Source: a phage. Taken from it: a stretch of 44,362 nucleotides of DNA. The stretch is taken from the sequence record PZ445525.1; one strand, 5' to 3'. Positions 5,217-42,343 of this stretch are shown piece by piece (the stretch's first letter is position 1; each line of letters begins with the position of its first letter). The notes below the pieces were generated by a model, which was not told the DNA's origin, made no database searches, and saw only the letters and a program-made list of their open reading frames with translations. The position numbers and the translations under genes were made by a program.

Positions 5217-5245
5217 TTGTGTGTCCTCGTTGTTGGTGTGCAACC

Positions 5246-5274
5246 AATATATGCAACCAATACGAGGATTGCAA
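5246..5274 (-). promoter_or_regulatory. candidate sigma70-type promoter for the reverse moron
   Basis: -35 TTGCAA (5269-5274), 17-nt spacer containing ATTGGTTGCA, -10 TATATT (5246-5251), second ATTGGTTGCA copy at the predicted start site. Confidence 0.4.
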
Positions 5275-24121: not shown

Positions 24122-24183
24122 TATGTGGTCCTTTTTAGCGTGGGGCCTTATTGCCCCGACGCGTTAACTATAGTGCAACCAAC

Positions 24184-24654
24184 CTATTGGTTGCAAGTAA
24201 ATTTTGCAACATTTATTGCGTAAATTTTCGGGACCAAATCGCTACACGCCCGGCGAATTGCCGCGATGTTCTTCGGACAGTCTTCAATGATGACCAGTTC
24301 CGACACGTCCGCATAGCAGACCATTTTGAACACCGCGCACGCTTTAAACTCTGGCGGCGGGGTGTCGTCCAGCATGTGGCGCATAAACAACCGCCCTACG
24401 GGGAATACTTCCAATTGCTCGGCGGTGGTTTCCCAGCATTCACGCTGCCGGTTTGTCAAATACGCTATCTCGAAGCCTTGCTCTTTGTACATGCGCAACA
24501 GCGGCAGCATATCCATGTTCAGGTCTTCGCGTACGTGCGCTTTGTGCCACTTCGCCCAAAAAGTGGATTTGGTTTTTATACCCGGCACCAGGTCGGCGCG
24601 TGCATCACTCGAACCATTAATAACGCCATCCAGATCACAAATCAGTAGTTTCAT
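24184..24654 (-). CDS. HAD-superfamily phosphatase
   Basis: N-terminal motif I L-I-C-D-L-D-G-V (DxDG[TV]); 156 aa. Confidence 0.55.
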   Translation of the reverse strand: MKLLICDLDGVINGSSDARADLVPGIKTKSTFWAKWHKAHVREDLNMDMLPLLRMYKEQGFEIAYLTNRQRECWETTAEQLEVFPVGRLFMRHMLDDTPPPEFKACAVFKMVCYADVSELVIIEDCPKNIAAIRRACSDLVPKIYAINVAKFTCNQ

Positions 24655-25786: not shown

Positions 25787-25867
25787 CGTGTTGTCTCCAG
25801 GTATTAAAAAGGGCGTCCAAACCGGACACCCTCAATATAATGCAACCAATCTTATTATGCAACCAAT

Positions 25868-34537: not shown

Positions 34538-34567
34538 CTAAAAATAGGCCCGCAGATTAGCGGGCCG
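34538..34567 (-). terminator. intra-operon intrinsic terminator (minus strand)
   Basis: minus-strand hairpin ccggcccgc-taatct-gcgggcc followed by TATTTTT, between the 34575-35084 gene and the downstream gene. Confidence 0.4.
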
Positions 34568-34574
34568 GATACTA

Positions 34575-35084
34575 TTAATCTTCCAGTTCGAAATAGGTTT
34601 CGACGATTTCTTTTAGCTCTTTGTGGAAGTCTTCGACGTCGTCATCTTCCAGCTTGGCGATTGATTTGATCTCGAACGCTTCCAGCAGATCATCAAATTC
34701 GTCGTTAGCGTCGTCGTCATCACCACCGGCAATAATCGCGGCATACTGTTTGATTTCGTCGCGCATCTCCGCCAGCGGATCGGCATCTTTCTTACCTTTG
34801 CCTTTCGCCGGTGCTTTTTTAGCCTTAGCCGGTTTTTCGTCTTCGGCGTCTTCGTCGTCATCTTCTACGACTTCTTTTTTGGCCTTGCCTTTCGCCGGTG
34901 CTTTTTTAGTTTTCGCCGGTGCTTCGTCGTCAGCGTCGTCATCTTCTACGACTTCTTTTTTGGCCTTAGACGGCTTCTTGTCTTCCTGTTTACCAACGGC
35001 AGCGCCAACGGTTTCATAATGTTTGGCGATGGTTTCCAGTGCTACTACGCCGCGAGTGATCAGGTTTACGATTTGTTCGAACAT
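34575..35084 (-). CDS. acidic repeat protein, first gene of leftward operon
   Basis: 169-aa ORF from ATG 35084 with RBS ggaga; two tandem ~24-aa repeats KKEVVEDDD-D-E-PAK-KKAPAKGK-KK. Confidence 0.5.
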   Translation of the reverse strand: MFEQIVNLITRGVVALETIAKHYETVGAAVGKQEDKKPSKAKKEVVEDDDADDEAPAKTKKAPAKGKAKKEVVEDDDEDAEDEKPAKAKKAPAKGKGKKDADPLAEMRDEIKQYAAIIAGGDDDDANDEFDDLLEAFEIKSIAKLEDDDVEDFHKELKEIVETYFELED

Positions 35085-35280
35085 GGTATATCTCCGATTG
35101 GTTAAGTTTAGGTGTCGGCAGTTAACTTCGTCGGTGGCCTTAACATATTGCCCGGTTGCGCGTTCTCCCGTTCGGGTAGTGGACCGGGTTATATAATCAC
35201 GGTTGGGAATCCTGACACTTCGATCCGGCCCCTGCGTTGCCCCTCTCCAGTTTGCGTCCTGCATCCTGTCGACGGAGTGA

Positions 35281-35310
35281 ATGATAGATTGGTTGCAGGA
35301 TGGGTGTCAA
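35281..35310 (-). promoter_or_regulatory. candidate leftward early promoter
   Basis: minus-strand TTGACA, 18-nt spacer containing TGCAACCAAT, TATCAT. Confidence 0.4.
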
Positions 35311-35320
35311 CAACTAATTT

Positions 35321-35355
35321 AAAAAAAAAAGCGCCGAGGCAAAATGCGACGGCGC
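35321..35355 (-). terminator. terminator-like hairpin with T10 (minus strand) upstream of leftward promoter
   Basis: 6-bp GC stem gcgccg/cggcgc with 13-nt loop; A10 on plus strand = T10 after the hairpin on the minus strand. Confidence 0.35.
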
Positions 35356-35419
35356 TAACCAATAAGAGACAATGAGACGGGAATTATTATTATTACACGC
35401 GTGCGCGCCCGTTTCAATA

Positions 35420-35448
35420 TCCAAAGGATTTGACACCGTGCAGTTTTG
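35420..35448 (+). promoter_or_regulatory. candidate rightward early promoter
   Basis: TTGACA, 17-nt spacer, TAGTTT, followed by inverted repeat TTGGTcattaACCAA and RBS gagggaag. Confidence 0.4.
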
Positions 35449-35489
35449 GGTGTAGTTTCGTTGGTCATTAACCAACTGAGGGAAGAGCA

Positions 35490-35819
35490 ATGAATGTAAA
35501 CGACGCAATCGAAATGTTAACGAAGACTGTTTGCAGTGAGACAAGCCGGTCATGGGCTTATACAGATGCCGTGGGGGCGGTGTTATTCGAAATCGAACGA
35601 CTACGGCTTACCGAAAAAGAATTGCGCGCCCGGCTGGAATTACTCAACGGTACGGCGGCCAGCAAGCTGCAAAAGCACAATGAAGAAATGGAAGAATACA
35701 AAAAGCAGGTTATCCGTTTGCGCGATGAGGGAAAGTCATGGGCGATGATTGCCGAGTTAACCGGAATTAATCAGAGCACTGTGCGCTCATGGGTACGCAA
35801 TAATAAAACTTCTAAGTAA
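35490..35819 (+). CDS. helix-turn-helix DNA-binding protein
   Basis: 109-aa ORF; C-terminal S-W-A-M-I-A-E-L-T-G-I-N-Q-S-T-V-R-S-W HTH-like segment; first gene of rightward operon. Confidence 0.55.
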   Translation: MNVNDAIEMLTKTVCSETSRSWAYTDAVGAVLFEIERLRLTEKELRARLELLNGTAASKLQKHNEEMEEYKKQVIRLRDEGKSWAMIAELTGINQSTVRSWVRNNKTSK

Positions 35820-38094: not shown

Positions 38095-38164
38095 ATTTTG
38101 CGCGCATTGGTTGCCATTTTGAGTGTTTCTAGCCGGTCGTATTGGTTGCCGTGTAGTGTGAACA

Positions 38165-38362
38165 TAGTGAATAGTTATGCAGTTTTATTGCATAAAACAA
38201 ACGGGACAAAAGGCGGGACAAACAAGGGGCGGGACAAAGCGGGACAGCACCCCGTCCCACCCCCGGATGACGCGGCCTGGAGAGGAGCGGGACAAGCGGG
38301 ACAAACCCCAGTCTTTCAGACTAGACGGGGGTCAGTGGCCCCCCTCGTCTGAGACTGAATAA
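38165..38362. repeat. GGGACA-iteron block with terminal long hairpin (copy B)
   Basis: 6 exact GGGACA in ~120 bp; hairpin CAGTCTTTCAGACTAGACGGGGGTCAGTGGCCCCCCTCGTCTGAGACTG differs from copy A by one loop base. Confidence 0.75.
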
Positions 38363-38516
38363 AATCCGGGGATTGCAAAATACACGGCAGCATGATGCGA
38401 AGTGCGGTCGCGGATGAACTAGGCAACCAATGCCAGTTGTATTATGCGGAGTGAAAAACGCAGTTTGCAGTCACAGCAGATAGCGATCAACTTTTTCATG
38501 CGCGTGATTAATATTG

Positions 38517-38552
38517 GTTGCATTCAGCCCGGCACCCGGCTATATTGGTTGC
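38517..38552 (+). promoter_or_regulatory. candidate promoter for small early genes with paired ATTGGTTGCA motifs
   Basis: TTGCAT (within ATATTGGTTGCAT), 17-nt spacer, TATATT, then GGTTGCACACCAAC, the same string found at the moron promoter. Confidence 0.4.
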
Positions 38553-38574
38553 ACACCAACATGAGGGCTGAACG

Positions 38575-42140: not shown

Positions 42141-42170
42141 TTGACTTGCAACCAACATAGAGGCCATACT
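42141..42170 (+). promoter_or_regulatory. candidate promoter with TTGCAACCAAC motif
   Basis: TTGACT, spacer containing TGCAACCAAC, CATACT; followed by palindrome TATTGGTCC-tc-GGACCAATA (42297-42316). Confidence 0.3.
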
Positions 42171-42343
42171 GCGACCAATAAACGAGAGGAGTAATACACT
42201 ATGGCACGTAATGATATTTGGGTATTGGCAATATTGTCCACCGCAGCATTTATCGGTATGGTTATTTGCGAACTGTCATAACCCGCCACAATAGGGACCG
42301 TGGTATATTGGTCCTCGGACCAATAACCAGGAAGTTAATTAAT

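Follow-up and report, generated by a model that had tools for sequence, protein, structure and literature searches.

What does the gap between two divergent early operons of a virulent coliphage contain, apart from promoters and the sites that control them? We looked at this question in the ~400-bp gap at positions 35,085-35,489 of the phage sequence PZ445525.1, which was analyzed over its whole length of 44,362 nucleotides (nt; the window). The source phage is a Dhillonvirus, an Escherichia coli siphophage similar to HK578, EP23 and SO-1, and about 150 records are 91-94% identical to it over 4.1 kb around the gap. An original prediction, made from the sequence, described the gap as a control region with leftward and rightward promoters, an orphan hairpin and operator-like motifs, and treated the 190 nt between the leftward promoter (P_L) and the first leftward gene as empty. 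This last part has to be given up. Of these 190 nt, 160 (35114-35273, 40% of the gap, previously unannotated) are not spacer and form a conserved, covarying RNA domain of about ten helices, which is common to unrelated phages.

Promoters and operator-like motifs alone would make an ordinary phage control region, one that is already half-annotated in HK578. What is new here is the 160-nt structured leader, a new RNA motif of a familiar general kind. To our knowledge, virulent coliphages have so far yielded few structured regulatory RNAs, and among antiterminators that consist of RNA only, put is the one whose mechanism has been worked out.

Conservation and covariation of the leader RNA

In a distant-mode search with the gap, positions 35197-35262 matched intergenic DNA of unrelated phages at 86-94% identity. 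The matches lie in Jilinvirus Arya, Serratia phage MQ-4, Hanrivervirus slyngel and its relatives, and Klebsiella phage KMI8, and all of them are unannotated there. When these intergenic regions are aligned on the minus strand, a conserved element of ~150 nt with visible compensatory substitutions is seen. By pattern scans and BLAST, 33 distinct copies were gathered from GenBank phages, IMG/VR and metagenomes, with little diversity gained from the metagenomes. Because register shifts defeated plain RNAalifold on MAFFT alignments, the structure was derived by hand on the 16 non-Dhillonvirus sequences that can be aligned without such shifts (alignment A3), and the copies were then realigned by a covariance model. 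In A3, 96.8% of the cells pair and 11 of the 41 pairs change on both sides. The covariance model (R1) was built from A3 only, i.e., without any Dhillonvirus copy. It scores true copies at 108-201 bits and has a single match in the window, at 35115-35272 on the minus strand (114 bits, E=1e-27).

In the model-fitted alignment of 32 distinct rows (A4), 97.1% of the cells pair and both sides change in 23 of the 43 pairs. Its covariation score is 0.435, compared with 0.145 in shuffles (0 of 500 as high), and in controls with the partners slid by 1-3 columns pairing was 26-42%, with both-side changes in 3-5 pairs. RNAalifold recovers helices P1, P7, P8 and P9 independently, and compensatory changes can also be read directly in the raw sequences. 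About 90 cells of A4 are G:U, including the invariant G48:U69, and together with the co-orientation of the domain and its flanking genes this indicates that the folded strand is the sense strand.

The positions of the helices are given in Table 1. Helix P1, which closes the domain, covaries between lineages (GUCGAC/GUCGAC, GGGCGGCG/CGCCGCCC, GACGGGC/GCCCGUC and AGACGG/CCGUCU), and P2a and P3 are separated by a purine-rich 6x6 internal loop. Several independent compensatory events are seen in each of P1, P6, P7, P8 and P9; those in P6 include two, in KMI8 (G:C to A:U) and in the copy L025 (U:A to G:U). All 13 counted pairs of P7 and P9, and five of the six in P8, change on both sides. This variable arm 2 evolves by compensation, unlike the 5' half (35199-35243), where columns 28-84 of A4 form a 57-nt core that is at least 95% identical in all lineages (GGAGAGGRGCAACGCAGGGGC..GAUCGWAGUGUCAGGAUUCCCAACCGUGA). 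A search for tertiary pairs gave mostly phylogenetic noise, in which only 26:154, in helix P2a, stood out. A loop-loop contact between CACU and AGUG, both invariant, is possible.

Open reading frames (ORFs) cross the domain on both strands (35112-35375, plus; 34575-35264, minus) and are annotated as hypothetical proteins in several records; they stay open because the sense strand is purine-rich. A coding reading, sense or antisense, was rejected on the 1-nt indels between lineages, on the presence or absence of ~139 nt, and on changes that are compensatory and not codon-like. Judged by this covariation and indel pattern, the ORFs are not genes. A scan for tRNA and tmRNA found none, and Rfam 15 gave no match, either for the whole window at the gathering score or, at E<=10, for slices of 200 nt from the window and from Arya.

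Distribution and genomic context of the domain

The domain was found in 172 of 50,697 phage records. These are ~137 Dhillonviruses, ~20 Drexlerviridae (Hanrivervirus, PHB17 and KMI8) and a handful of Jilinvirus-like phages (Arya, MQ-4, IME279, Alux-21, BUCT618 and HeidiAbel_Bas97). The carriers include the E. coli K-12 phages PaulFeyerabend, KarlBarth, GeorgBuechner and TheodorHerzl, as well as Bas-numbered phages such as HeidiAbel_Bas97. Neither the 5,426 complete E. coli genomes nor the 72,556 plasmids searched gave a match, and R1 found none in phage T1. A two-block pattern of the domain hit 17 loci in bacterial genomes, 16 of which were rejected by R1 as chance matches. The remaining one (L031) is QFQS01000013.1, a 42.8-kb contig filed under a Cereibacter sphaeroides metagenome-assembled genome (MAG). 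It carries the domain at 188 bits, in a copy nearly identical to that of an IMG/VR phage contig (L021), and looks like a phage contig that was binned into a bacterial MAG.

About 12% of the Dhillonviruses do not carry the domain (Envy, JLBYU37, YD-2008.s, Haito, RuthEpting, CHD5UKE2 and LM40P1). They lack exactly its interior (~139 nt; 35121-35266) and have instead a small 5' hairpin that starts at the same G; among Envy (L070), LM40P1 (L071) and CHD5UKE2 (L072), this hairpin is GUCGACAGGGCAUACCGCCCGGAC or GUCGAAACGAC. From this presence and absence within one genus, the domain is an optional, horizontally exchanged cassette, accessory and not essential. The copies in PHB17 and in the Dhillonviruses have their 3' strand in common, suggesting a recent exchange. 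Since natural relatives with and without the domain differ almost only by it, its function can be directly tested, with the domain-less phages as ready-made deletion controls.

Another question is whether the setting of the domain is as constant as its fold. The domain and the genes that flank it point the same way in every lineage. The best -10 box called by the script lies 9-11 nt before the model's P1 in 16 of 19 contexts; in the other three (L010, L031 and L044) a -10-like hexamer was found at 9 nt by eye only. In the window, the -10 of P_L ends 7 nt before the full P1. The promoter score is at least 9 of 12 in 12 of the 19 contexts, compared with 2.7% of random positions. Such a constant -10 spacing indicates that the RNA starts at, or within a few nt of, P1, and the P_L transcript would thus be expected to start at about P1. 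The promoter itself is often preceded by a terminator, as in Arya, in the context L013, and here, where it is the T10 hairpin. On the 3' side, in the contexts that were inspected by eye, P1 is followed by a short, G-poor, A/C-rich linker, a Shine-Dalgarno sequence (SD) and a same-strand start codon ~26-56 nt away.

The genes behind the domain are unrelated between contexts, and no co-conserved neighboring protein was found in its flanks. In Jilinvirus-like phages a conserved block, TTGATAGGTATAAACGATTA, precedes the domain's promoter (L002 at 2590-2640, and at the same place in L009, L044, L045 and L046); this block may be a lineage-specific operator.

Promoters, candidate operators and a putative small RNA in the gap

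The gap serves as the early control region between divergent operons of the phage, whose virulent lifestyle, predicted from the lack of a recognizable repressor or integrase, would follow from its membership in the genus Dhillonvirus. Its predicted size agrees with the two start codons read in the sequence, the leftward ATG at 35084 and that of the rightward gene for a helix-turn-helix (HTH) protein at 35490, and a matching gap of ~403 bp, with no feature inside, is found in the annotation of phage bob. The features of the region are listed in Table 1.

Table 1. Features of the control region and of the leader RNA domain, in window coordinates
Feature	Position	Strand	Description
Structured leader RNA domain	35114..35273	minus	~160 nt, ~10 helices; predicted 5' end of the P_L transcript
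P1	35273-35266 (GUCGACAG) / 35121-35114 (CUGCCGAC)	minus	closes the domain; predicted transcription start at or next to G35273
P2 hairpin	35253..35263	minus	UGC-AGGAC-GCA; loop AGGAY invariant; pairs invariant, outside the covariation test
P2a	35251-35250 / 35126-35125	minus	one pair shows four pair types
P3	35243-35239 / 35138-35133	minus	closes the three-way junction; one compensatory event, A:U<>G:C
Arm 1	35237-35199	minus	P4 35237-35235/35201-35199; P5 35232-35229/35208-35205; P6 hairpin 35228-35223/35216-35211
Arm 2	35142..35194	minus	variable 3' arm; P7 35194-35190/35147-35142; P8 35188-35183/35156-35151
P9	35176-35174/35169-35167	minus	tetraloop hairpin, part of arm 2
Linker	35082..35113	minus	A/C-rich, unstructured; includes SD GGAG and ATG of first leftward gene
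First leftward gene, start	35084-35082	minus	ATG; SD GGAG 35095-35092
P_L	35281..35310	minus	-35 TTGACA 35310-35305, 18-nt spacer, -10 TATCAT 35286-35281; 11/12 to consensus
TGCAACCAAT motif	35288..35297	minus	inside P_L spacer; candidate operator; invariant while adjacent spacer bases vary
Terminator hairpin	35321..35355	minus	GCGCCG...CGGCGC 35355..35331, then U10 35330..35321
Candidate small RNA	35321..35382	minus	~56-62 nt; single-stranded 5' part CCCGUCUCAUUGUCUCUUAUUGGUUA, then terminator; 5' end predicted
P_s	35389..35417	minus	-35 TTGAAA 35417-35412, 17-nt spacer, TG-extended -10 AATAAT 35394-35389; 10/12
P_R	35430..35458	plus	-35 TTGACA 35430-35435, weak -10 TAGTTT 35453-35458 (3/6); read from sequence
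Palindrome	35461..35475		TTGGT-CATTA-ACCAA; over predicted P_R start site; candidate operator
HTH gene	35490..35819	plus	109 aa, first in operon, candidate regulator; primase-helicase gene next
Intrinsic terminator	34547..34566	minus	inside leftward operon, 3' of first gene; 7 G-C pairs and U-rich tail

By consensus matching, the gap holds three sigma-70-type promoters, P_R rightward and P_s and P_L leftward. P_L was found as predicted, with the TGCAACCAAT motif in its spacer, and the minus-strand promoter suspected near 35395-35425 is P_s, with a TG upstream of its -10. A rightward promoter does exist, 10 nt further right than the 35420-35448 first given; it was missed by the promoter scan because only three of the six positions of its -10 match. 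Between 34500 and 36000 there are 4 promoter-like sites, compared with 1.5 +/- 1.3 in shuffles. In an alignment of 15 Dhillonviruses, the three promoters, the T10 hairpin and the palindrome hardly vary although the neighboring bases do, and P_s and the -35 of P_R are invariant. Since the HK578 RefSeq record already carries three consensus promoters at the corresponding places, the promoter layout is real but not new.

The view of the gap as a divergent control region is borne out, and so are a leftward promoter with a motif that is found genome-wide and an operator-like palindrome at the rightward start. TGCAACCAAT has 10 exact and 8 one-mismatch copies in the window, i.e., 18 at one mismatch or less, whereas 3.5 are expected. 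The copies are mainly paired, 13-35 bp apart, and lie within gaps between long ORFs (5239-5261, 21301, 24174-24195, 25841-25867, 38106-38150, 38422, 38513-38553, 39271 and 42147-42179), often with an A/T-rich, -10-like hexamer directly 3' of them. The perfect palindromic form, TGCAACCAAC-CT-ATTGGTTGCA, occurs once, at 24174-24195. TGCAACCAAT is probably the site of a phage regulator, for which the HTH protein, with its HTH similar to sigma region 4, is a candidate. The 480-bp gap just downstream of the primase-helicase gene has five copies of the TGCAACCAAT type together with a very long G+C-rich hairpin of 17 pairs (38225-38264, minus strand), and may be another control or origin region.

The TTGGT-N5-ACCAA arrangement that was noted near the rightward promoter is present there exactly, and has three exact copies in the window (also at 5233 and 38545). 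The palindrome is kept wherever the HTH gene is present. In the context L012 and in CHD5UKE2, an unrelated gene of ~150 aa with a different leader takes the place of both HTH gene and palindrome (equivalent of 35459-35819). Such a joint replacement would fit a palindrome that is the operator of the HTH protein itself. In this 109-aa protein the HTH is C-terminal (Pfam HTH_23, 4e-7; Sigma70_r4_2, 4e-6), and its database labels 'Gam', 'transposase' and 'resolvase' are backed by nothing beyond the HTH. These labels of the adjacent regulator, and the 'hypothetical protein' over the RNA in many records, can now be corrected.

What is the role of the T10 hairpin? Its stem and U10 are present on the minus strand as described; the terminator scan overlooked it because its loop is longer than 8 nt. 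The term 'orphan' fits only in part, since the U/T run would also occupy the UP-element position of P_L, at -38 to -59. The hairpin might also, as the alternative in the original prediction has it, insulate P_L from antisense read-through. The idea that a ~60-nt transcript ends at this hairpin gains from the conservation of promoter, 5' segment and hairpin in 155 Dhillonvirus records: the block 35316-35425 is full-length in all of them, is found nowhere else, and keeps its stem by compensatory changes. In LM40P1, the most diverged, GCGCCG/CGGCGC becomes UCCCCG/CGGGGA, which is two compensatory pairs. The 26-nt 5' segment CCCGUCUCAUUGUCUCUUAUUGGUUA is invariant and is predicted to be single-stranded, and structure prediction for the 62-nt RNA gives -16.7 kcal/mol (z=-3.55 against shuffles). 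The predicted P_s transcript has its own promoter (by consensus match) and a G+C-rich hairpin with at least 6 U, as is expected of Hfq-type small RNAs. It fits no Rfam family; the best match (E=0.24) is below the threshold, and the weak matches (STnc480, ncS54, rli61 and L20 leader) all fall on the terminator hairpin, far below it.

A role for this putative RNA may be looked for in pairing. The longest inverted repeat in the gap (14 nt, 12 of 14 matching) joins the SD region of the first leftward gene (35091-35104) with the 5' part of the small RNA (35356-35369), and the two could still pair in the diverged LM40P1, where three substitutions and one deletion have occurred. By chance such a 12/14 match is expected about once in four such regions, and it may be explained by the AACCAAT core that both arms share with the DNA motif. 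A target scan within the phage gave no match that was exceptional or convincing.

The products of the leftward operon are an acidic protein whose function is unknown, two small proteins, a nuclease of the PD-(D/E)XK type and a single-stranded DNA (ssDNA)-binding protein of the Enc34 type. The first protein has no Pfam family and belongs to phrog_3127 (function unknown). Its gene (34575-35084; product acidic and lysine-rich) has an 81-bp tandem duplication (34854-34871, 34935-34952), which yields repeated KKEVVEDDD..KKAPAKGK segments and also two spurious plus-strand 'terminator' calls. Over the control region, this E. coli Dhillonvirus is 93-97% identical to two records named for other hosts, MG065648 (Campylobacter phage A144) and OQ221563 (Acinetobacter phage NJ01), and these host labels look doubtful.

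Possible function of the domain and comparison with known systems

The question that follows is what such a domain does. The reading that we prefer, and to which we give about an even chance, is that it is a cis-acting module of the 5' untranslated region (UTR), which engages a host component and in this way affects the early leftward transcript, in its stability as mRNA, its translation or its elongation. A cis-acting 5'-UTR module is suggested by the promoter adjacency, the buried 5' end, the fixed short distance to the SD, the lack of a phage partner, the restriction to Enterobacterales phages, the invariant core and the replacement by a hairpin. The unrelated downstream genes, together with the absence of a co-conserved flanking protein, argue for a host partner.

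A mechanism that fits these data can be suggested for the whole gap. P_R would drive the HTH-primase/helicase operon and would probably be shut off at the TTGGT-N5-ACCAA over its start site; P_s would make an RNA of ~60 nt that stops at the T10 hairpin; and P_L, with TGCAACCAAT in its spacer, would drive the leftward recombination/replication operon, with a transcript that begins at P1 of the 160-nt domain or a few nt from it. Promoter, folded domain, short unstructured A/C-rich linker and SD would form a portable cassette, swapped among unrelated lytic Enterobacterales siphophages and placed before different first genes, the domain acting in cis on its own mRNA. The closed fold at the 5' terminus would hide the mRNA 5' end, and the ~57-nt invariant half may bind a conserved host component: RNA polymerase, the 30S subunit/S1, or an RNA-binding or RNA-degrading protein. 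The outcome would be a higher stability, translation or elongation of the early transcript.

Several points weigh against this reading. The A4 alignment behind the final counts was fitted to R1, and the covariation comes from about six lineages with shared descent. Covariation has nothing to say on P2, P4 and P5, which never vary, and for part of the invariant 5' half RNAalifold proposes another pairing. The minimum free energy of the domain is no better than that of shuffled sequence (z=+0.27) and folding of single sequences does not reproduce the consensus structure; with no thermodynamic signal, the case rests on covariation. All start sites and 3' ends are predictions, and no Dhillonvirus transcriptome was found in the literature. 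The best phage target of the small RNA, the SD of the first leftward gene, ranks 645 of 29,523 windows by duplex energy. Moreover, a simple hairpin suffices to protect a 5' end, so that stabilization alone leaves ~60 invariant unpaired or junction nt unexplained, and the host partner is one that we infer.

The most specific rival, which we consider unlikely, is that the domain works in processive antitermination or antipausing, as HK022 put and Bacillus EAR do: the nascent RNA would bind its own polymerase and carry it through the leftward terminators. Like putL, the domain begins at the (predicted) transcription start and heads multi-gene operons; its restriction to Enterobacterales phages and its invariant half are as expected of a ligand of the host polymerase, neither an expression platform nor a partner protein was found, and the operon contains a strong intrinsic terminator 550 nt further on. 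This rival is weakened because the domain-less Dhillonviruses keep the identical terminator (34547..34566) in the same operon, and because four lineages (Arya, slyngel, MQ-4 and PHB17) show no strong same-strand intrinsic terminator within 2.5 kb downstream. The domain also has twice the size of put and another architecture, and such a model does not call for so short a distance to the first start codon.

Another option is a riboswitch-like sensor for a host metabolite, second messenger or protein that tunes the gene behind it. The 5'-UTR position and the general plan, a multi-helix junction closed by P1 with conserved junction and internal-loop nt and variable, covarying peripheral helices, would suit it, and the binding of structured 5'-UTR motifs by the phage regulators Aca1/Aca2 gives a precedent (PMC13551039). 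Against it, neither a terminator nor a conserved SD-sequestering alternative follows P1, the linker varies in sequence and length, the downstream genes have nothing in common, no phage protein is co-conserved with the domain, and no Rfam riboswitch matched at E<=10. We hold this option to be quite improbable.

It is also doubtful, to a similar degree, that the domain is a trans-acting noncoding RNA released from the leader to act as decoy or sponge, either for an RNA-binding protein of the host or for an anti-phage defense. A decoy would explain why the domain is optional, polymorphic within one genus, spread between unrelated lytic phages and absent from hosts, prophages and plasmids, and its predicted expression is early and promoter-proximal. 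There are several GGA motifs, and the hairpin loop AGGAU/AAGGAU seems to resemble the CsrA site selected by SELEX (systematic evolution of ligands by exponential enrichment). Yet most GGA motifs lie inside model helices, no terminator or conserved processing signal was found at the 3' end of the domain, a co-oriented gene is always close behind, and there is a single copy per genome.

That the block is no RNA at all, and instead is coding (an extension from the ATG at 35264, or the antisense ORF) or an ssDNA or origin element, is very improbable: both ORFs are open and annotated in several GenBank records, their translations cluster between phages and primase/helicase genes adjoin the block in several lineages, but the stem substitutions follow no codon pattern, the 57-nt core has no synonymous-type variation, the single-nt indels would shift any frame, the ~139 nt missing from domain-less phages are not a multiple of 3 and yet SD and ATG 35084 are kept, the G:U pairs show that the strand which folds is the transcribed sense one, right behind a promoter, and an origin would not be dispensable.

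Beyond the preferred cis-acting 5'-UTR module, a wider claim can be made tentatively, as a possibility that we rate below even: the domain may be the first of a class of phage RNA that is new and directed at the host. It would be a leader that modifies the polymerase or the ribosome and is unrelated to put, nut and EAR, or else a sensor or decoy against a host factor or defense, and it would travel as a promoter-leader cassette between unrelated virulent Enterobacterales siphophages, with the P_s transcript as a separate small RNA of a lytic phage.

How does the domain compare with systems that are already known? The put RNA binds the zinc-binding domain of the RNA polymerase beta' subunit and suppresses termination without protein factors. 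Like the putL and putR RNAs of HK022, the domain would be a cis-acting phage RNA made by the host polymerase, found at the head of early multi-gene operons just downstream of a host-type promoter, host-specific and in need of no phage protein. The HK022 put RNA has ~70 nt and two stem-loops (stem I, with a triplex, and stem II), and putL begins at the transcription start (PMC9378689). Membership in put was rejected for a domain of 160 nt with ~10 helices and a three-way junction, and R1 found no match at E<=10 in HK022 20,000-40,751, a stretch assumed to include the put sites (no put feature is annotated there). In scans for intrinsic terminators, a terminator downstream was not a consistent feature of the domain, with a strong one in Dhillonvirus, which the domain-less relatives keep, and none evident in four other lineages.

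With riboswitches the domain shares an aptamer-like fold closed by P1 and conserved junction nt. It differs from them in lacking an expression platform, as its 3' flanks are variable and G-poor and the hairpins there in L044 and L045 have no U-tails, and in that the first genes behind it are not functionally coherent. The motifs in anti-CRISPR operons that are bound by Aca1/Aca2 (PMC13551039) are also structured and stand before early phage genes that are small and variable, near a gene for an HTH regulator; those motifs are small hairpin pairs, whereas the domain has no co-conserved regulator across phage lineages. Fremin, Bhatt and Kyrpides (2023) describe 10,006 candidate phage RNAs predicted in bulk from IMG/VR (PMC10690425). 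Their prediction, like ours, uses covariation in the intergenic DNA of phages and draws on that collection; the RNAs in their list are unnamed and uncharacterized, and the domain might be among them. The conserved 16-mer of the domain was in none of the full texts searched.

The P_s transcript can be compared with the lambda OOP RNA and with Hfq-type small RNAs, which are likewise short, with a promoter of their own in the early region, a single-stranded 5' part and a strong hairpin with a long U tail; unlike OOP, it would be antisense to no gene. For the domain itself, the preferred cis-acting module comes close to the 5'-terminal stabilizer leaders, such as the ompA-type 5' stem-loop and the T7 gene 10 leader. 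In both, the 5' end is held in a helix and is followed by an unstructured A/C-rich stretch and an SD, and the unit is portable before different genes. The stabilizer leaders are simple hairpins without conserved sequence, whereas the domain is a large covarying fold with a 57-nt invariant core.

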